Source: Thermodesulfobacteriota bacterium
GTDB lineage: Bacteria > Desulfobacterota > Desulfobacteria > Desulfobacterales > C00003060
Assembly (NCBI GenBank): GCA_034189385.1
Contig: JAXHVD010000030.1
Coordinates: 1-44,649, forward strand
Length of the DNA stretch: 44,649 bases
Direction: 5' to 3'
In this document: one piece after another, positions 6,534 through 43,782 of the stretch
How the letters are laid out: every line of letters starts with the position of its first letter
Position numbering within the stretch: the first letter of the stretch is position 1
Made by a program: the position numbers and the translations under genes
Notes under the pieces: generated by a model
Databases searched by the model: none
What the model was told of the DNA's origin: nothing
What the model saw: only the letters and a program-made list of their open reading frames with translations

Positions 6534-6740
6534 GGGCTCATCCCCAGACAGCACAGGCGACCGCAAAACGCGCAAAGACAATCCAGACATCCCCGGCCAC
6601 ACCAGATTGAACCCCCGCTGACCTTTTTTTGGGGGATGCCTGTCTTTTCAACAAACTAACTGTCTTTTCAATGAGTTGCAAAGCATCCCCGCCTGCCCTC
6701 AAGGGGGCGGAGCCTGCCCGCCGTTAATCAAAAAAAACTG

Positions 6741-6979
6741 AATGAACCGCGGACAACCGCAGACAGGCGCAGACATTTTGTCCGGTCGACGTGACCGGCC
6801 AAACCCCCTGATCGCTTCGCGAGAGTCTTGGGTTGAGACTGGACTTTGGTAACCGGCATTGATTTTGAGTGGGAACCCTGTCCCTGTTGATGGAAGGAAA
6901 TCAGGAAGAAGGCTGGTACTAAATTTGCCCGAAGGGCACGACCATAGTCTGCGTTTGTCCGCGTATGTCCGCGGTTAAT
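6741..6979. mobile_element. Family A non-coding element, copy A1 (~240 bp)
   Basis: Ends ATGAACCGCGGAC...GTCCGCGGTTAAT with 10-bp-periodic CGCAGAC/GTCYGCG subrepeats. Internal hairpins CCGGTC-GACGT-GACCGG, TCGC-TTC-GCGA and TGCCC-GAA-GGGCA. Confidence 0.85.
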
Positions 6980-7014
6980 CAAAAAAACCTGAATGAACCG
7001 CAGACAACCCATGT

Positions 7015-7293
7015 CTAAGACGTGCGCCTTTCCATTCGCTCATAGACCTCTTTGCGGTGAATAATGCCAAGGATGAGAATCTCGGTCTTGGATACCTTAA
7101 AAACGACACGATATTCTCCTACCCTTAGTTTCCAGTATCCTTTAAGGGTTCTTCGCAGGGGCTTTCCATAGACTTCAGGTCCGGTGGCAAGGCGTTCCTC
7201 CAAGGCTCTTTTGATCATGGACCTGTTTTTCTTGTCGATCTTCGGCAGATCCACCTTTTTCACATCAGGATGATAAACGAATCGAAAGGCCAT
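7015..7293 (-). CDS. RelE/ParE-family toxin (TA1)
   Basis: MAFRFVYHPDV...GKPLRRTLKGYWKLRVGEYRVVF...IIHRKEVY. Confidence 0.92.
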   Translation of the reverse strand: MAFRFVYHPDVKKVDLPKIDKKNRSMIKRALEERLATGPEVYGKPLRRTLKGYWKLRVGEYRVVFKVSKTEILILGIIHRKEVYERMERRTS

Positions 7294-7414
7294 GTTTTCG
7301 AGACCTCTATTGCACAACTCCTTCGAACGTTGATGATGGGCTTCTGCTCACGGAGCTCGGGAAATGGCTTGATGGCGCGACTCTGCTTCCTGAACGAACT
7401 TCTGATTCACCACA

Positions 7415-7642
7415 CTAGGACCACACCTCATCGTGAGCAAGCCCTTGGGATTTGTCCCACGTGCCTTCTCTTTCTTGGCCGAAAGAATTAAGAAAGATAT
7501 CTTCCTGAATTTCCATGGCTTCCTTGATCAGATCTCTGACCTTGGTGGACAGGGACACGCCGTCCTTCTCGGCCAGAAATTGGACCTGCTGATAAAGAGG
7601 AGCATCCAGCACCACATTGATCCTTGGATTCTTGGCAGGCAT
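7415..7642 (-). CDS. RHH-type antitoxin (TA1)
   Basis: MPAKNPRINVVLD...LSTKVRDLIKEAMEIQED...HDEVW; AAGGGAGG RBS; upstream of the RelE gene. Confidence 0.85.
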   Translation of the reverse strand: MPAKNPRINVVLDAPLYQQVQFLAEKDGVSLSTKVRDLIKEAMEIQEDIFLNSFGQEREGTWDKSQGLAHDEVWS

Positions 7643-7773
7643 CACCTTTATCCCTCCCTTGTAGTTCTTTGGAAAAAAGTGTAACACAAGTGACGCACCA
7701 GGTCAACCACTCAACGATTCAACCAATCGTCTGCGTATGTCCGCGAGAGTCCGCGGTTAATGAAAAAAAGCTG

Positions 7774-8156
7774 AATGAACCGCAGACAACGCAGACGGCC
7801 GCAGACATTTTGTCCGGTCGACGTGACCGGCCAAACCCCTCATCGCTTCGCGAAAGTCTTGTGAGAGGAAATGAGACTCAGTGGCATGGGACGGGTGTGA
7901 ATGTGGATGCCTGGAAAGGACTTACCAAGAGGCTGATACTAAATTTGCCCGAAGGGCACGGCGTGTATGTCGGCGACAAGCCTGCCCCGTGAAACACCTA
8001 TTTCACCGGGGCCTGCCCCGTGAAACGCCTATTTCACCGGGGCCTGCCCTGTGAAATGCAGAGCCTATTTCACTGGGGCTTGCCCCGTGAAACGCCTATT
8101 TCACTGGGGTCGTCGGCGGCATAGTCTGCGAGGGTCTGCGTCTGTCTGCGGTTAAT
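7774..8156. mobile_element. Family A element copy A2, with a nested family B array
   Basis: Same ends and internal hairpins as A1; four B hairpins inserted at 7980-8109. Confidence 0.85.
7980..8109 (+). repeat. Family B REP-like hairpin array (4 units)
   Basis: GCYTGCCCCGTGAAA-N5-9-TTTCACYGGGG units in tandem. Confidence 0.92.
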
Positions 8157-8167
8157 GAAAAGCCCTG

Positions 8168-8336
8168 AATGAACCCCTCATCGCTTCGCGAAACCCATGA
8201 GAGGAAATGAGACTCAGTGGCATGGGACGGGATGAGAATGTGGATGCCTGGAAAGGACAGATCAAGAGGCTGGTACTGAACTTGCCCGAAGGGCACGGCC
8301 ATAGTCTGCGAGAGTCTGCGAAGGTCTGCGGTTAAT
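8168..8336. mobile_element. Family A element copy A3 (internal deletion near the left end)
   Basis: AATGAAC joined directly to CCCTCATCGCTTCGCG; the remainder is near-identical to A2 and ends GCGGTTAAT. Confidence 0.8.
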
Positions 8337-8393
8337 GAAAAAAACCTCGCAACGCGTCAAGTAACCCCAAAACCCCAAAAGGGAGCGACCACA

Positions 8394-9410
8394 ATGCACA
8401 TCCTTGTTACAGGAGCAGCCGGTTTCATCGGCTTTCACGTGAGCAGACGTCTTTTGGAACAAGGCCATGAAGTCATCGGCCTGGACAGTCTGAACACCTA
8501 CTATGACGTGAGGCTAAAGGAGGCCCGCCTCAAGGAGCTGGCGCCCTTTGAGAGGTTCACCTTTACCAGACTGGATCTGGGCGACCGTGCGGGGATGGAG
8601 GCCCTTTTTGCCGACCATCATTTTGACCGGGTCATCCACCTTGCGGCCCAGGCCGGGGTAAGATACAGCCTCACCAACCCCCATGAATACGTGGAGAGCA
8701 ACGTGAAGGGGTTTCTGCACATCCTGGAAGGGTGCCGTCACTCCAAGGTGCCCCACCTGGTCTTTGCCTCCAGCAGTTCGGTCTACGGCATGAATACCAA
8801 GATGCCCTTTTCGGTGCACCACAACGTGGACCACCCCGTGAGCCTCTATGCGGCCACCAAGAAGGCCAACGAACTCATGGCCCACACATACAGCCACCTC
8901 TACGGCCTGCCCACGACGGGGCTGCGCTTTTTTACCGTATACGGACCCTGGGGCCGTCCCGACATGGCCCTATTCCTTTTCACCGAGGCCATCTTGGAGG
9001 GCCGTCCCATCAAGGTCTTTAACAAGGGCAACATGGAAAGGGACTTCACCTACATTGACGACATTGTCGAGGGCGTGGTGCGGGTCATGGACCATATTGC
9101 CCGGCCCAATGCCCAGTGGGACCCACAGGCCCCCGATCCCGGGTCCAGCCCCGGGCCCTATCGTCTTTACAACATCGGCAACAACACCCCTGTCCAACTC
9201 ATGGACTTTATCGAAGCCGTTGAGACCGCCCTGGGAAAGAAGGCAAAAAAGGAGTTCATGTCCATGCAGCCGGGAGACGTTCGTGCCACATTCGCCGATG
9301 TGGAAGACCTCAGCCAGGCCGTGGGCTTTAAGCCCCGGACCGCTCTAAGTGAAGGCATCGGCCGTTTTGTGGACTGGTACCTGGACTATTTCGGCCACCC
9401 CCGCCCCTGA
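8394..9410 (+). CDS. UDP-glucuronate 4-epimerase (NAD-dependent epimerase, CapI/Uge type)
   Basis: [33 protein letters not shown] and [14 protein letters not shown]. Confidence 0.95.
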
Positions 9411-9430
9411 TCCCGAAGAAGAAAAAGCTG

Positions 9431-9664
9431 AATGAACCGCAGACGGCCGCAGACGGCCGCAGACCGTTTGTCCGGTCGACGTGACCGGCCAAACCCCTTA
9501 TCGCTTCGCGAGAGTCTTGGGTTGAGGCTGGGTTCTATGATCCGGCATGGACTTTGGCAACCCTGCCCATGTTGATGGAAGGAAGTCGGGAAGAAGGCTG
9601 GTATTGGATTTGCCCGAAGGGCATGACCATAGTCTGCGTATGTCCGCGAGAGTCCGCGGTCAAT
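9431..9664. mobile_element. Family A element copy A4
   Basis: Same ends and hairpins; central region resembles A1. Confidence 0.85.
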
Positions 9665-11266: not shown

Positions 11267-11282
11267 GTCTGCCTTCGTCGGC

Positions 11283-11731
11283 GCCTGCCCCGTGCAATCC
11301 TATTTCACCGGGGTGTGCTTGCCCCGTGAAACGCCTATTTCACCGGGGCTTGCCCCGTGAAACGCCTATTTCACCGGGGTCTGTGTGTGTCTGTGGCTAA
11401 TCAATCTTCATTTCACTGGGGCCTGCCCCGTGAAACGTCTATTTCACCGGGGCTTGCCCCGTGAAACCCCTATTTCACTGGGGTGTGCTTGCCCCGCAGG
11501 TCCGGCAGATCCTACCGGGGCCTGCCCCGTGAAACGGCTATTTCACCGGGGTCGGTGTGTGCTTGCCCCGTGAAACGCCTATTTCACCGGGGCTTGCCCC
11601 GTGAAACGCCTATTTCACCGGGGTCGGTGTGTGCTTGCCCCGTGCAATCTTGCGCGTATCCTTTGGAGAGGTCTCCCCAGAGAGGATCATTTCACTGGGG
11701 CTTGCCCCGTGAAACGCCTATTTCACTGGGG
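11283..11731 (+). repeat. Family B REP-like hairpin array (11 units + 1 half)
   Basis: Co-oriented GCYTGCCCCGTGMAA...TTTCACYGGGG units with short GT-rich linkers. Confidence 0.93.
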
Positions 11732-11837
11732 TCTGTGGCTAAACCCAATTCTCGTCACTTGTCACTGACCAGGTCAAGGACCACAAGGAGGCCTTCGGCG
11801 ATTGAAATAGTAGTTGGCTCAGAAGAATGGTTTGCCC

Positions 11838-12793: not shown

Positions 12794-13057
12794 ATGCTTA
12801 TTGAATATGTTAATAAAGCTATGAGTAAGGCGGTTTACGATAAACTGGACGATGGTACTTTTTCGGGCAAGATCCCGCAGTGTCCTGGTGTCGTCGCCTT
12901 TGGAGAATCATTCTTTCAGTGCGAGCAAGCATTGAGATCCTCCCTTGAAGGATGGCTCATTGTAAAAATTAGGCATGGAGATCAATTGCCGGTCATAGGC
13001 AAGATCAATTTAAACAAAAAAATGCCTGTTCTTGAAGGCGCTACTGCCCATGGGTAA
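12794..13057 (+). CDS. hicB: HicB-family antitoxin (TA5)
   Basis: AVYDKLDDGTFSGKIPQCPGVVAFG...LRSSLEGW. Confidence 0.88.
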   Translation: MLIEYVNKAMSKAVYDKLDDGTFSGKIPQCPGVVAFGESFFQCEQALRSSLEGWLIVKIRHGDQLPVIGKINLNKKMPVLEGATAHG

Positions 13058-13190
13058 ATGGAAGCCATGCAAACGAAGAGATTTCATCAAAAAACTCAAG
13101 AATCTCGGTTTCGGATCACCTGAACCGGGCGGCCGGCATTTCTATCATGACTCGTCACTGACCATTTGTGGCTTAACACCTAAGACGTAA
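13050..13190 (+). pseudogene. hicA: Truncated HicA toxin (TA5)
   Basis: MGKWKPCKRRDFIKKLKNLGFGSPEPGGRHFY, then runs into a repeat tract at ~13150 and stops after 46 codons. Confidence 0.85.
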
Positions 13191-13226: not shown

Positions 13227-13339
13227 CCACTCTGTTTTACGCCATAGGCGTAGGCCGGGGCCGGTGGAATCAGGAAACCCTGATTCTTCCGGCAGTTGTT
13301 GCCGTTTGTCTGCGTGAGTCGGCGTGTGTCTGCGGTTAA
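13227..13339. repeat. Family A variant right half, duplicated at 14670-14760
   Basis: CCACTCTGTTTTACGCC-NNN-GGCGTAGG...GAATCAGGAAACCCTGATTC...GTCTGCG present in both places. Confidence 0.8.
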
Positions 13340-13412
13340 GGGAAAAGATTCCAATGTTGTTCATCCCAATCAACCATTTGACAAAACAGCCAATCATTTG
13401 GCGTTCATCCGC

Positions 13413-13477
13413 GCTTGCCCCGTGCAATCCTATTTCACCGGGGTGCGCCTGCCCCGTGAAACCCTATTTCACCGGGG
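13413..13477 (+). repeat. Family B hairpins (2 units)
   Basis: Two GCYTGCCCCGTG...TTTCACCGGGG units. Confidence 0.9.
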
Positions 13478-13628
13478 TCCGTGTGGGTCTGTGGCTAAAC
13501 CCAAATCTCGTCACTCGTCACTGACCATTTGTGGCCTAACACGTAAAACCCAAACACCTAAATCGGTTCCCGGACTGGTGACTTGTCACTGATCATTGGT
13601 AACTTAACATGTAAAACCTGTAAGAAGC

Positions 13629-14399: not shown

Positions 14400-14960
14400 G
14401 CCTGTCCAGTGAAATGCAAGGCCGATTTCACCATTCGACCACTTAACGATTCAACCAATACCCCAATCAACTATTTGACAAAACAGCCAATCATTTGCCG
14501 TTCATCCGTGCTTGCCCCGTGCAATCCTATTTCACCGGGGCCTGCCCTGTGAAATGCAGTGCGTATTGTTTGCAGATGTCACCGGTTAGAGAATTATTTC
14601 ACCGGGGTCGTCGGCGCCATAGTCTGCGTTCGTCCGCGAGAGTCTGCGGTTAATCTGTCTCTAAGGCTTCCACTCTGTTTTACGCCGAAGGCGTAGGCAG
14701 GGGCCGGTGGAATCAGGAAACCCTGATTCTTCAGGCAGTTATTGCTGTTCGTCTGCGTGTGCCTGCCCCGTGAAACCCTATTTCACCGGGGCTTGCCCCG
14801 TGCAATCTTGCGCGTATCCTTTGGAGAGGTCTCCCCAGAGAGGATCATTTCACTGGGGCTTGCCCCGTGCAATCCTATTTCACTGGGGTCTGTGTGGGTC
14901 TGTGGCTAATCAATCTTCATTTCACTGGGGCTTGCCCCGTGCAATCCTATTTCACTGGGG
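14400..14960 (+). repeat. Composite of family B hairpins (~7), an octamer tract and family A right ends
   Basis: B units at ~14400, 14510-14607 and 14761-14960; an A right end ending GCGGTTAAT at 14654. Confidence 0.88.
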
Positions 14961-38549: not shown

Positions 38550-39317
38550 TTGACAGATAGGCTCAAGATACTGGATTTCTGGGCAGACCCCCTGACCAGG
38601 GCCGAATGCCTGGAAAAGGTGAGCGGCTATCTCGAGGAGGACGGGGGGGTTCATACCATTTTTGCCGTTAATCCGGAGAAGAACTTCGCGGCCCGCAAAG
38701 ATGGGGCCTTGCAACATACACTGGAATCGGCGGACCTTCTGATACCCGATGGAATCGGGGTGGTGCTGGCTGCGAGAATACTTTACGGCGCAAGGCTGTC
38801 CCGCGTCCCGGGCGTAGAGTTTATGGAAGCCATCTGTGCCCTGGCTGCAAAGGGGGGGTACAAGGTCTTTTTCTATGGCGCAAGGGAAGAGGTGAACAAG
38901 CAGGCCGTGGAGATACTGAGGGGCCGTTATCCTGGTTTAAATATTGTGGGCAGGTCAAACGGGTATGTGAAAGAAGAAGAGATGGCGTCTCTTGTAAAAA
39001 AGATCAATGCCTCCGGGGCCGAGGTCCTTTTTTTAGCCCTGGGATCGCCCAAGCAGGAGAATTGGATTTCCGCCTACAAGGATGCCCTCAAGACCGTGAG
39101 GGTGTGTCAGGGCATAGGGGGCACACTGGATACGATCGCAGGCCGTGTGAAACGGGCGCCAAAGATCTGGTGCCGGTTGTCAGCCGAATGGCTGTACCGA
39201 CTCCTCTCAGAGCCCAGAAGGATCAAACGTCAGAAGGTGCTGCCAATCTTTGCGGTGATGGTTGTCCTCGCAAAGCTCAGACAAGGGGCAACAAGAACAA
39301 CCCTAGAAAACCGTTGA
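38550..39317 (+). CDS. WecG/TagA/CpsF-family glycosyltransferase (GT26)
   Basis: VNPEK, PDGIGVV, RVPG, LGSPKQE and EWLYRL. Confidence 0.94.
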   Translation: MTDRLKILDFWADPLTRAECLEKVSGYLEEDGGVHTIFAVNPEKNFAARKDGALQHTLESADLLIPDGIGVVLAARILYGARLSRVPGVEFMEAICALAAKGGYKVFFYGAREEVNKQAVEILRGRYPGLNIVGRSNGYVKEEEMASLVKKINASGAEVLFLALGSPKQENWISAYKDALKTVRVCQGIGGTLDTIAGRVKRAPKIWCRLSAEWLYRLLSEPRRIKRQKVLPIFAVMVVLAKLRQGATRTTLENR

Positions 39318-39348
39318 ACCGCAGACGAACGCAGACAACCGCAGACAC

Positions 39349-39791
39349 TTTTTACCCAATTCAGCTCAAGGCACTTTTGGGTAAAAAACGAACAAGGTGG
39401 CATCCACGAACCCAATAGGCCGCCCCGAGCCGCCTGACACTTTTTACCCATTTCAGCTCAAAGCACTTTTGGGTAAAAAACGAACAAGGTGGCATCCACG
39501 AACCTAATTGGCCGTCCCGAGCCGCCCATAGACTTTTACCCAAATCAGCTCAAGGCAGTTTTGGGTAAAAACAGCCTTGTTTGGCCGCACGTCCCAACCA
39601 GTAGGATCATTTTCTGACCCAGACCGCGGAGCGGAACGAAAGACGGTACTGTTATGAAACAACTCACGCAGAAGCTAAAAACCGGCAATATGCGCGTCCT
39701 TGAAGTTCCCATTCCCAAACCGACCCCGAAGGGCATGAGCCTCCAACCATCACTTTTACCCAAATCAGCTCAAGGCACTTTTGGGTAAAAA
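39349..39791 (+). repeat. Family C hairpin direct repeats C1-C4
   Basis: TTTTACCCAWWTCAGCTCAARGCASTTTTGGGTAAAA at ~39349, 39441, 39534 and 39754. Confidence 0.95.
39654..39788 (+). pseudogene. N-terminal fragment of a polysaccharide-locus bi-domain oxidoreductase (Zn-ADH + Gfo/Idh/MocA type)
   Basis: MKQLTQKLKTGNMRVLEVPIP, then runs into repeat C4 and stops; recognised from memory of the family N-terminus. Confidence 0.65.
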
Positions 39792-39841
39792 GATGGTGGT
39801 TCAATGGCTGATTTCGCGGACCCAAGATGACATTAGGCTGC

Positions 39842-40186
39842 TCAGGATGGCTTTTGGGGCGACCTCCTTGTGGCATGGCCTTTCTTTATTTCTCTTAGAT
39901 CGGTGACATCGAACGTATATGCTCTTCCGATTTTGTAACCGGGAACTCGGCCGTCTTTCACCCATCGTCTCAAGGTTACAGATGACACGCCGAGATACTC
40001 GGACGCCTCTTTTAGGTTGAAAGGCTTTGCTGCAATTTCATTTTGCCAAGCTTCTATGTCCAGGATCTCAGGGGCGTCCTTGGCGTGGCCCTTTATCCCA
40101 AAGTCCACAATATGGCGAGCAACCTTTTCTCTTTCTTCTATTGGAAGAAGGTACATGTCTCTGATGACCTTTTCTGCCGTTAGCAT
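39842..40186 (-). CDS. Excisionase-like HTH DNA-binding protein, putative antitoxin (TA7)
   Basis: FNLKEASEYLGVSSVTLRRWVKDGRVPGYKIGRAYTF. Confidence 0.85.
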   Translation of the reverse strand: MLTAEKVIRDMYLLPIEEREKVARHIVDFGIKGHAKDAPEILDIEAWQNEIAAKPFNLKEASEYLGVSSVTLRRWVKDGRVPGYKIGRAYTFDVTDLREIKKGHATRRSPQKPS

Positions 40187-40187
40187 T

Positions 40188-40466
40188 TCAGCCTCCGATT
40201 TCCCGCAGGTATCGTCAGATTCTTGTAAAAGTTCTCATGTGGGCCAACCTGATAAAGGACGAGAGCATCGTCTTCGATTCTATAAGCCATCAACGTCAAT
40301 TGGCGGCCCATTGTAAACTTGTGAACCCTTCCAGGTCCCCTGCTTTGTGCTCACCGACTCCGGGGTCTGCGAGAACGTCTTCCACCGCATCTAAGATAAC
40401 CTGCTGAAACTGTCGTGGAAGCTTCTTTACGTACCTTTTGAACCGTGGCATCTGAAAGAGTTTCAC
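40188..40466 (-). pseudogene. Frameshifted RelE/ParE-like toxin (TA7)
   Basis: Three frames give MKLFQMPRFKRYVKKL...DPGVGEHKAGDLEGF / HKFTMGRQLTLMAY...VGPHENFYKNL / RYLREIGG*. Confidence 0.85.
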
Positions 40467-40716
40467 AATCCATTCTTATCATACCTTGTCAAATATAGGG
40501 CTCTTTTTTTCGAATCCCAGGCTCCTAGTACGCAAACCGAGCGGGGCAGTGATGATTGTCTTGGAAAAGCTAAGGGAGTGGTGGATTCGTCAAACAGTTG
40601 ATTGGTTAATTGGTCAAATGGTGGTGGTGGGTTGATTAGTCAAATGGCTGAATCGCTAAAGGAGTGACCTGACAGCCGCAGCCAGAAGACATTTTCGAAA
40701 CGCACCCCCCCGGTAC

Positions 40717-40930
40717 TTTTTACCCAAATCAGCTCAAGGCACTTTTGGGTAAAAAGTGAGAAGCCCACGGCCTCATCCCGTCGCCGACAGCCCTTGGACG
40801 CCCCACACTTTTTACCCAAATCAGCTCAAAGCACTTTTGGGTAAAAAAAGAGGAAGCATACAGCCACATATCCACCCGGCCCCACAGAGACTTTTTACCC
40901 ATTTCAGCTCAAGGCTGTTTTGGGTAAAAA
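40717..40930 (+). repeat. Family C hairpin direct repeats C5-C7
   Basis: Copies at ~40717, 40809 and 40892, separated by unique spacers. Confidence 0.95.
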
Positions 40931-40962
40931 GGTATAGTCGCATCTAGGTTTCTGCCGCCACC

Positions 40963-41886
40963 ATGGACCCCATAGACCTAATCAGAGACGGCAAGATCCG
41001 TCGATACTTCCGGGCGACAAAGAAGTTCAACGTCCCTAACCTGGTATCTCACATCACCCAGAGGGCAGCCGGGAAAGAACCATCGTTTTTGGAAGACAGT
41101 GATTATCTGACCATGTTGGGGCTCCTGAAAGAAATCGCCGAGAATTACTCGCTAAGAATGTTTGCCTTTTGTCTCATGCCAAACCATGTTCATTTGTTGT
41201 TTAGCCCAACGGAAGCGAACCTTTACGATGCCATGCGGGACTTATTTTCGAGATATGCCACGCGATTCAACAGGAAATACGAGAGAAAAGGCCATCTGTT
41301 TGGCGGGCCGTACAGACAAGCCGTATGTCTCGACGACAGCTATCTTCTGGCCGCTTCACTCTATATCCACCAGAATCCAGTGAGGGCGGGGCTGGCGAGA
41401 GACCCTTTGAAGTACCGGTGGTCGACATGCAGATTGTTTTGTGAACCTGGTGCTCCCAAGTCTTTTGTAGATTCTCATTTCATTTTGAGATTGCTTTCCA
41501 AGGGAGAGGTTTCAAGAGAAGAAGAATACCGGCGGCTCCTGAAACAGGGGGGCGAGTTGGAAACAGGGCATGTCATCGAACAGGAAGATGCCATAGAACG
41601 TTTCCGCTCAAAGCTTACAACCATGTTTCCTTCGGTTTTTAAGCGAATTGCTAATAAAAGGCAGATTGCCGCATTTTCGGCCATAGACTTACTCGACATA
41701 GGAGAATTGGAAAAGCAGCTTGAAGCAATGAGGACGGCCAAATTTCCCAACAAACCAGAGAGCAGAAAAGCCAAAAAGCATCTCATCGAACAGCTTATTG
41801 CCCGTGGCTACAATCGTGGCGAGATTGCGGAACGACTCTGCATTTCCAGGAAAAGCGTTTACAACATCCTGAATTCCCCCATGTGA
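40963..41886 (+). CDS. REP-associated tyrosine transposase (RAYT, Y1 HUH) with C-terminal HTH extension
   Basis: HITQR, FCLMPNHVHLL (HUH), GHLFGGPY, YIHQNPVRAG (catalytic Tyr), YRWST; C-terminal GEIAERLCISRKSVYNIL. Confidence 0.92.
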   Translation: MDPIDLIRDGKIRRYFRATKKFNVPNLVSHITQRAAGKEPSFLEDSDYLTMLGLLKEIAENYSLRMFAFCLMPNHVHLLFSPTEANLYDAMRDLFSRYATRFNRKYERKGHLFGGPYRQAVCLDDSYLLAASLYIHQNPVRAGLARDPLKYRWSTCRLFCEPGAPKSFVDSHFILRLLSKGEVSREEEYRRLLKQGGELETGHVIEQEDAIERFRSKLTTMFPSVFKRIANKRQIAAFSAIDLLDIGELEKQLEAMRTAKFPNKPESRKAKKHLIEQLIARGYNRGEIAERLCISRKSVYNILNSPM

Positions 41887-41901
41887 ACAGCACATCCGGA
41901 C

Positions 41902-42034
41902 TTACCCAATTCAGCTCAAAGCACTTTTGGGTAAAAAACGTTGAAGTTGAATTCCCGCTTGCACGGGCAGAGAGTCAGCCAGACCCTGGACAGACGTTTT
42001 ACCCAAATGAGCTCAAGGCTGTTTTGGGTAAAAA
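41902..42034 (+). repeat. Family C hairpin direct repeats C8-C9
   Basis: Copies at ~41902 and 41997. Confidence 0.95.
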
Positions 42035-42187
42035 CATGGTGGCTCAGCGGCTGATTTCACGGACCTTGGGTACCACCTCAGGGCCCCGAGTATTGGCACA
42101 AGGTTGTGCATGATTCACGCCCCTGTGAAGTCCCTAAAACGTGAAACTTGACCCCCAACACTTAAAACCTAACACCAGGTGAAAAAC

Positions 42188-43279: not shown

Positions 43280-43283
43280 GGAT

Positions 43284-43660
43284 TGGCCACAGACCCACAC
43301 AGACAGCCGCAGACAGTTTGCCCGGTCGACATGACCGGCCAAAACATGCCATCGCTTCGCGGATCCCATGAGAGGGGGGAATACCCGTGGCATTACTAGA
43401 CGGGTGAATGTGACTGGGCGGGGTGAGGAATCAAGAGGCCGGTACTAATTTGCCCGAAGGGCTCGAGTTTAATGGCGGCGACAAGCCTGCCCCGTGAAAC
43501 GGCTATTTCACCGGGCCTGCCCCGTGAAACGGCTATTTCACCGGGCCTGCCCCGTGAAACGCAGTGCCTATTTGAGAGGGAAAAGCGCGTCTACGGGGGT
43601 TGTTTCACTGGGGTCGTCGGCGCCATGGTCAGCGTGAGTCGGCGTAGGTCCGCGGTTAAT
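43284..43660. mobile_element. Family A element copy A5 with three nested B hairpins (43485-43613)
   Basis: CCGGTCGACATGACCGG, ATCGCTTCGCG and TGCCCGAAGGGC; ends CGCGGTTAAT. Confidence 0.85.
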
Positions 43661-43671
43661 GGAAAGACCTG

Positions 43672-43748
43672 AATGAACCACAGACCCACACAGACAGCCG
43701 CAGACAGTTTGCCCGGTCGACATGACCGGCCAAAACATGCCATCGCGA
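43672..43748. mobile_element. Family A left half (A6), truncated next to TA8
   Basis: AATGAACCACAGACCCACACAGACAGCCGCAGAC...CCGGTCGACATGACCGG. Confidence 0.8.
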
Positions 43749-43782
43749 ATCCAACGAGAGGAAGAAAGGCCCTTGCTTGTCG

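Follow-up and report, generated by a model that had tools for sequence, protein, structure and literature searches.

A head-to-tail array of gene-less GxxExxY elements in a bacterial polysaccharide locus, probably grown by recombination between arms

Introduction

[quoted passage not shown] Repetitive extragenic palindromes (REPs), their hairpin-forming doublets (REPINs) and REP-associated tyrosine transposases (RAYTs) show hairpin pairs flanking a nuclease gene, gene-less doublets and tandem clusters in intergenic DNA, with no clear target duplication. Among insertion sequences proper, insertion next to a resident end or passage through a circle junction is a feature of IS30, IS21 and IS911, and in dimers and circle junctions of IS3, IS21, IS30 and IS256 a right end abuts a left end across a short spacer, which measures a few bases, is nearly fixed and requires a DDE transposase. 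Here we analyse a 44,649-nucleotide stretch of DNA from a Thermodesulfobacteriota bacterium (GenBank assembly GCA_034189385.1, contig JAXHVD010000030.1; the whole stretch is called the window) that carries a head-to-tail array of repeat units, family A. Judged by their sequence, each of these units derives by internal deletion from an inverted-repeat element that carries one GxxExxY gene when complete, and has lost that gene.

The parent gene is a member of the PDDEXK_3/GxxExxY family PF13366, to which a passage of PMC3424549 ascribes an unknown function and multiple horizontal transfers; that passage makes no mention of flanking repeats or of mobility as an element, and the relevant passage of a bioRxiv RT paper merely names the domain. 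Literature queries by GxxExxY, family accession and MITE, with supplements and most subscription journals outside their scope, turned up no account of the element, which appears to be undescribed both as a class and in its tandem growth. For integrons, attC sites are characterised in a passage of PMC3053210 by GTTRRRY and RYYYAAC cores and a site length of 57-141 bp.

The window is the entire contig C24 of its genome, G000 (assembly 4.13 Mb, 90% complete). Relatives' genomes are likewise designated by G numbers. Two sequencing runs were drawn on through Logan contigs, namely X1, the likely source run, and X3, a run of another study; runs X2 and X4 gave short or distant pieces only and were excluded from strain claims.

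Results

Family A units resemble GxxExxY elements without their gene

The array reads J1-U1-J2-left stub-TA1-right stub-J3-U2-J4-U3-half junction-epimerase-half junction-U4 (J, junction; U, unit; TA, toxin-antitoxin; plus strand unless stated), and a second pair, U5-J5-U6, lies at 43283-43750. An initial annotation of this DNA had described a head-to-tail array of units, some of them empty. The order holds, for DNA of a mobile type, and "empty" needs correction, since the units keep the 3' end of a GxxExxY gene (four profile matches in five units). Each unit comprises a left arm, a decayed body of about 110-125 bp and a right arm; the arms show the CGCAGAC/GTCYGCG repeats noted earlier, with a 9-10-bp period, and carry stable GAA-loop hairpins on opposite strands. 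U1 (6742..6979), a gene-less GxxExxY element, contains a left arm, two hairpins, a decayed body, the 3' remnant of the gene (6907-6942), a GAA-loop hairpin and a right arm, and when folded as DNA it pairs its two arms from end to end. U2 (7775..8156) keeps a 3' remnant at 7894-7962 and has 31-bp palindromic B repeats inserted at 7978-8116. In U3 (8169..8336) the left arm is deleted and the gene remnant (8237-8299) is the best kept of all, U4 (9432..9664; remnant 9589-9627) has a body 85% identical to that of U1, and U5 (43283..43660) carries another B insert. U6 is represented by a left arm (43673..43750), which a BrnT-type TA pair on the minus strand follows.

When translated, the units show the text of the GxxExxY C-terminal motif just before each right arm, and four of the five end in the last codons of a PF13366 gene, with 12-21 codons retained. 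A family-A protein profile built from 11 proteins matched four of the five in its final columns, on the expected strand and in the expected place, with scores of 13.5 (U3, columns 104-124), 6.5, 5.4 and 5.1 bits; among 500 random genome pieces, the highest scores with the same profile were 93.8 bits, for what is probably a GxxExxY gene in its own right, then 8.7 and 4.3 bits. The DNA match between units and complete elements is plain and covers both arms and the last 30 coding bases of the gene. The five bodies, all of 110-125 bp, are 66-91% alike, with U1/U4 and U2/U3 as the closest pairs, a pattern suggesting that a single deleted ancestor was amplified locally.

The complete form consists of a left arm (ATTAACCGCAGAC-type triple repeat with hairpins), a gene ending in the C-terminal motif, and a right arm. 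A 0.6-kb element in G009 combines arms of this type on both sides with a whole gene that ends in the motif and contains one in-frame TAG, and a search with it in 401 genomes of the order matched 16. Intact genes that end in the motif and are followed by a hairpin and a right arm occur in G112, G197, G340, G034, G040 and G208, and the left arm in G034 is 80-81% identical to those of U1, U2 and U5 over 80-83 bp. The window's own genome holds four PF13366 genes that are intact; inverted repeats with a 9-10-bp period flank every one of them, and the one on contig C12 carries a CACAGAC version of the family-A arms. Relatives also contain single gene-less units of 169-257 bp at unrelated sites, with other deletion ends (in G288 the gene is cut after codon 31), and G100 has three near-identical gene-less copies at unlinked loci.

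The parent protein is a predicted nuclease

On the basis of a generic fold and catalytic E...D...ExK residues, the GxxExxY protein is predicted to be a PD-(D/E)XK nuclease. Residues E37, D66, E76 and K78 are invariant in 33 proteins, and a structure model (predicted local distance difference test, pLDDT, 92) matches Cas4 SSO0001, AdnA, the LHK and lambda exonucleases, Hjc and restriction enzymes with Z up to 8.6. No recombinase or DDE match is among the structural matches listed, and a PDB sequence search with the parent protein found no relative. Family-A arms accompany one well-supported GxxExxY clade (97/93, 18 rows), an association that shows co-inheritance only, since the rows were partly chosen by similarity; five of the 18 were missed by the arm pattern, and four of those show arms by eye.

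Elements occupy operon gaps without a consistent target duplication

Elements sit in gaps between operon genes, immediately past a stop codon. In the gap between genes that we take to be lipB and lipA (these names, wecB below and the label of the second operon gap come from recognising the sequences), a gene-bearing element is present in 3 of the 16 genus genomes having both genes, and an empty unit in one. Elsewhere this gap holds different repeat remnants, and in two genomes it measures 19 and 32 bp. The second gap is filled in 3 of 31 cases, these three having been found through the element, and is no longer than 25 bp in 13 of the 31. Presence and absence at orthologous sites, as expected of MITEs, was thus found at both gaps. 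G009 and G020 have different element types at one site, and no close allele lacking the element was recovered in a search around G112 and G127. In different genomes, two conserved operon gaps (L155-L184 and L135-L152) have gathered many remnants of 7-10-bp periodic repeats that are unrelated to each other, as though several element types used the gaps in common for landing.

The longest flank repeat was 4.12 nt for 16 elements (two sharing a flank) against 4.21 nt in shuffled pairs, indicating no target duplication, and none was seen in the three G100 copies. Pointing the other way, ATATGA stands by eye on both sides of the G040 array and as a single copy at the empty site, for which selection for stop and start codons could be an alternative source.

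Like MITEs, the units are short, non-coding, bounded by terminal inverted repeats, intergenic and dispersed, and they are internally deleted from a longer gene-bearing element with which they share their ends. Unlike MITEs, they have as parent a protein of 120-130 amino acids with a predicted PD-(D/E)XK fold and no known transposase, their arms are periodic triple repeats with hairpins, and copies stack head to tail. The element works like a MITE and partner pair, and by the test of target duplication it falls outside that class. Ordinary MITEs with variable target duplications had been offered as the alternative to the initial proposal; the first part of that alternative comes close to being right, and the second finds no counterpart in the 16 elements.

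Junctions are assembled from the ends of neighbouring copies

The junctions first reported near 6722, 6971, 7753, 8148 and 43652 are real. The pattern GCGGTTAAT-N12-13-ATGAACC has four matches in the window (6971, 7753, 8148 and 43652) against none in 100 shuffles and is confined to C24 within the 4.13-Mb assembly; a fifth junction, which begins at 6720, has the sequence GCCGTTAAT with one mismatch. J1 (6720..6750) joins this decayed right tip through a 13-nt A-rich core to the left tip of U1, and the pattern count gives J2 (6971..7001), J3 (7753..7783), and J4 (8148..8175) and J5 (43652..43681) with 12-nt cores. The cores read CAAAAAAAACTGA, CAAAAAAACCTGA, GAAAAAAAGCTGA, GAAAAGCCCTGA and GGAAAGACCTGA. 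The half junctions announced near 8328 and 9420 are likewise present, at 8328..8349 (right tip and A-run, GAAAAAAACCT) and 9419..9440 (A-run, CTGA and left tip). An inverted repeat around a core is thus confirmed, and the fixed core length claimed with it is not, the core measuring 12 or 13 nt in the window and the tip-to-tip distance 16-23 bp across genomes (22-23 bp in G000, 22 in G040, 16-17 in G621).

A junction consists of the right tip and A-rich tail of one copy, then the left tip of the next. In a comparison of 21 right and 28 left ends, sequence conservation is lost within 4-5 bp outside the tips and gives way to A/T-rich DNA; a run of at least five A stands at 6 of 21 right ends of relatives, and the right end includes TAATAAAAAT in all three G100 copies. 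The junction is made up of the tails that the ends themselves bring, and with distances of 16-23 bp it does not show the constant spacing required of a recombinase site.

Comparable arrangements occur elsewhere. G040 has a head-to-tail junction with core AAAAAAAGCAGG among a parent gene and two empty units, G621, from another order, has empty units beside a parent gene with A-run junction cores, and in G046 an empty unit directly follows a parent element. The A-rich junction is not a pure local accident, as a similar one is found in G040 and G621 too, and the element shows gene-less copies in tandem time and again.

The genome and relatives were scanned for the junction, as proposed earlier. 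Strict scans returned three matches in GTDB (about 3.3 expected) and three in JGI collections, a chance level and none with arms; these patterns are too strict, missing G040 and G621, and show only that the exact core is private. A relaxed pattern was run over 401 genomes of the order, a 401-genome phylum sample and viral contigs. It gave 18 matches outside G000 in the order against 19 for a reversed control, with arms on both sides only in G040 and a weaker case with another arm variant in G254. The phylum sample gave two matches, both in G621 with real arms, against two in the control, and the viral contigs five, none with arms.

Breakpoints in a paralogous locus and in a related strain

A block of wecB, left arm and BrnT TA pair is present twice in G000, on C24 and on C12. 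The C24 block is longer by 391 bases, the length of U5 plus J5, which is exactly the spacing of two left arms identical over 69 bp (43678-43746 and 43287-43355), and the C12 block has no junction core. With both breakpoints inside the 69-bp identical arm and not at the core, gain or loss by exchange within the arm is indicated.

In run X3, from a related strain (about 91-94% identical), a 1972-bp contig joins 6300-6725 to 8363-8882 across 603 other bases, and a second contig covers the epimerase end and U4, so that the U1-TA1-U2-U3 block is variable while the epimerase stays in place. One break of the X3 replacement falls at the J1 tip (6725), and the other lies some 14 bp beyond the half core. 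On whether polymorphic insertions end precisely at the junction, as had been asked, a single X3 break agrees; the other X3 break misses it, and the C24/C12 breakpoints lie in the arm. A look for circular junction reads had also been proposed, and no circle or skip joint at the junction is listed for X1, a weak negative as Logan contigs drop rare variants.

TA1 and the epimerase are not family-A cassettes

TA1 lies, as first described, between a left-end and a right-end stub. The left-arm stub (6993..7013), when compared with U3 and U5, was likely shortened by deletion between two AACC words, and the right-arm stub (7729..7761) is upstream of a promoter-like site of TA1's own (7706-7678, minus strand). 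The toxin belongs to the ParE/RelE family (7015..7293, minus strand; PF05016, E=8.6e-9) and the antitoxin to the ribbon-helix-helix (RHH) type (7415..7645, minus strand; PF07878, E=7.3e-6). Between the two genes lies an end fragment of an unrelated dispersed repeat ending CACTAG (7345..7421), with 17 further blastn hits in the genome; its parent is about 250 bp long, and the fragment sits at the antitoxin stop codon. The sugar epimerase (8394..9410) does lie between two half junctions, and we annotate it as NAD-dependent (PF01370) where a UDP-GlcA epimerase had been named; it has the same position in the X3 strain.

Among 22 loci with TA1 homologues, there is no case of boxing by family-A arms (one locus has a tip 1.2 kb away, and a lone hairpin occurs at another), and the arms are likewise absent from 13 epimerase loci and from the paralogue on contig C3. 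Periodic repeats of some kind are near 7 of the 22 TA1 loci and 4 of the 13 epimerase loci, compared with 14 of 200 windows drawn at random from G000, a rough control that uses this genome alone. The surroundings of TA and sugar genes are thus rich in repeats, but these genes do not form family-A cassettes, and with homologues unboxed elsewhere the claim that cassettes shuffle them falls. We infer that the epimerase belongs to the locus as a resident, and probably not as cargo, with element copies on both sides.

Discussion

Growth of the array

We interpret the locus as an array of gutted GxxExxY elements, grown by duplication and unequal recombination between arms, and assign this interpretation a probability of roughly 0.72. 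A GxxExxY element would have settled in gaps of the polysaccharide locus and lost its gene, after which one deleted ancestor would have been amplified locally by exchange between arms. Each duplication would have carried the same 12-13 flanking bp along, and the core would look conserved because of this. TA1 and other mobile debris may then have landed in the tolerant gap and broken some units into stubs. A GxxExxY protein supplied in trans might, putatively, cut the arm cruciform or hairpins and start copying; G000, with its four intact genes including one of the same arm type, offers a possible source. TA and sugar genes might, in addition, pass between loci by passive exchange, with the arms as the homologous sequence.

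Several results weigh against this interpretation. The protein score clearly beats random pieces for U3 only, and U5 lacks a profile match and is frameshifted by eye. The epimerase has half a core on each side, resembling an insertion scar. C24 and C12 are paralogues (83-91% identical) and not alleles, so the 391-bp difference could be a gain or a loss of any age, and one X3 break falls on the J1 tip. Above all, the G040 core is very like the window core GAAAAAAAGCTGA, at 22 and 23 bp from tip to tip, respectively. This likeness is the main result favouring enzymatic end joining, and plain duplication can account for it only through the frequency of A-rich tails at the element ends.

A wider proposal, which we put forward as distinctly tentative, is that GxxExxY genes with periodic inverted arms form a class of mobile DNA in which a tiny PD-(D/E)XK nuclease takes the place of a transposase and cuts the arm cruciform, repair copies the unit beside an existing end, without target duplication, and successive rounds give head-to-tail arrays in operon gaps, which would capture and reshuffle TA modules in polysaccharide loci. 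The analysis does away with a mistaken "integrase-less integron" and connects the repeats with a gene family, PF13366, that is very common. The arms become a concrete candidate substrate for the GxxExxY protein, making its function directly testable. Gene-less copies piling up beside the parent gene in several lineages, without target duplication, point to cut-and-copy growth, not ordinary transposition. If the arms do drive exchange between polysaccharide loci, they would be a source of surface variation in these bacteria.

Alternative explanations

Element-driven end joining survives best among the alternatives, although we think it unlikely. Here the element's own reaction would join right to left end, by a circle junction or targeted insertion, and DNA bounded by ends, like TA1, could move as a composite. 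The abutting ends recall IS dimers, and A-run junctions in three genomes of different families, the agreement of G040 and G000 at 22-23 bp, the TAATAAAAAT shared by the G100 right ends, the different element types found in place of, or next to, one another at a single site (G009 and G020) and the X3 break at the J1 tip all fit such a reaction. It is contradicted by the 16-17 bp distances in G621 and by the loss of conservation 4-5 bp past the tips, the structural matches listed include no DDE or other transposase fold, the C24/C12 breakpoints lie in the arm, and X1 lists no circle joint (a weak test). Unlike IS dimers, the array spans 16-23 bp from tip to tip and has no DDE gene. The earlier suggestion of a recombination site or circle junction therefore keeps the recurrence of the junction in G040 and G621 and loses the geometry of a recombinase site: a tyrosine or serine recombinase would leave a fixed spacer with the crossover in it, and here spacing varies and breakpoints lie in the arm.

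The initial annotation's own proposal, an integron-like array in which the junction is the crossover site of a trans-acting site-specific recombinase that shuffles TA and sugar genes, is largely refuted and has become improbable. It had in its favour the tandem head-to-tail order, the palindromic repeats between small genes, the inverted repeat around a core, the many TA pairs taken as cargo and the half cores flanking the epimerase, to which the genome adds an integron integrase and four resolvase-family genes elsewhere. At family-A tips in the window, however, the GTTRRRY and RYYYAAC cores are absent from all pattern hits (0 of 7 right, 0 of 8 left), and GTT is kept in just 4 of 21 right tips of relatives. 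The units measure 168-382 bp against 57-141 bp for attC, and the junction palindrome alone, of about 30-80 bp, has its tips in the order opposite to attC. Set beside the integron arrays of the passage in PMC3053210, the locus thus differs in cores, size, missing linked integrase, untied cargo (0 of 22 and 0 of 13) and arm breakpoints; strict junction scans at chance level, a variable spacer, TA1's own promoter-like site and the GxxExxY gene as the natural cargo of the arms add to this.

No integrase was found on C24 (44.6 kb), in line with the earlier statement that none is visible; that statement does not extend to the genome, which has a lone IntI on contig C42 with its own attC-like sites. 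This true integron (G000:C42:2882-6700) comprises IntI (TIGR02249, 420 bits) and, after it, small genes along with attC-like hairpins at about 4801, 5394 and 6303, three sites picked by eye and then folded, which are ordinary and unlike family A. Family-A right stubs upstream of this integrase among TA genes would favour the integron-like explanation, and we read them as probably the same debris. Upstream of IntI, between HEPN/nucleotidyltransferase-like and HicAB-like pairs, stands a 250-bp composite made of remnants of repeats, with a family-A right arm as its last part.

Copying of the units by a Y1 HUH transposase of RAYT type, such as the gene at 40963-41886, is still less probable. A Y1_Tnp gene is present in the window and seven are in the genome, the arms have stable GAA-loop hairpins on opposite strands, target duplication is absent, and like REPINs the units include gene-less copies and tandem clusters in intergenic DNA. 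The Y1 gene, RAYT-like with a C-terminal helix-turn-helix, is instead flanked by unrelated 38-bp palindromes of its own (D4, nine copies within 39349-42046), whereas family-A arms bracket GxxExxY genes and track one GxxExxY clade (97/93; rows partly chosen by similarity). The boxed gene is of PD-(D/E)XK and not HUH Y1 type, units keep a gene piece, and copy number is low. The Y1 gene and its palindromes form a separate REP-like system.

An assembly artefact, with repeats collapsed or mis-joined in a metagenome bin, would suit the 69-bp identity of the U5 and U6 arms and the lack of a single Logan contig across the whole stretch, but has a negligible chance of being right given that units differ by 9-34% and that mismatch-free X1 pieces span J2 with unique flanks (6778-7389) and the 8328 half junction (8202-8650).

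Further features of the window and genome

The locus on C24 is devoted to polysaccharide export and synthesis (export protein, chain-length proteins, AAA ATPase, and glycosyl-, sulfo- and pyruvyl-transferases) and contains at least seven TA-type pairs and one Y1 transposase. Beyond the array there are stray arms at three places: a right arm among TA genes (13305..13340), a right arm after B repeats (14617..14654) and a left arm just past a WecG-family gene (39314..39347). An Rfam gathering scan of the window matched nothing. The 31-bp palindromic B repeats form dense tandem clusters at 7978-8116, 11270-11740, 13400-13480, 14497-14960 and 43483-43553 and are inserted in family-A units and in relatives' other GxxExxY arms.

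In four places (C42:1330-1465, C42:2520-2655, C7:85880-86020 and C19:56490-56640), family-A right stubs are followed by a recurring promoter with its leader (TTGACAAAA ... CCAACGAAGAGG.TGCC ..., with a long hairpin and a T run). One copy follows a tRNA-like sequence and one precedes a restriction-like gene, and the repeat is possibly a regulatory RNA or an island end.

At the contig start (1-119), a 17-bp repeat stands six times in tandem upstream of the export gene. A short open reading frame at 13033-13160, after a HicB-like gene (12794-13057), is truncated by a GTCACT-type periodic repeat; we take it to resemble a broken HicA, and Pfam gave no match. Ten PF05635 four-helix-bundle genes were counted in G000, one of which, on C1, adjoins a family-A-like right tip, and the CAACCAAT- and GTCACT-type periodic repeats of the window may presumably be remnants of PF05635-linked elements. 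A second, reduced copy of the polysaccharide locus lies at G000:C12:154800-157250 (L208), where a piece of the export gene directly precedes wecB, the left arm and the BrnT pair, and exosortase-like genes follow.

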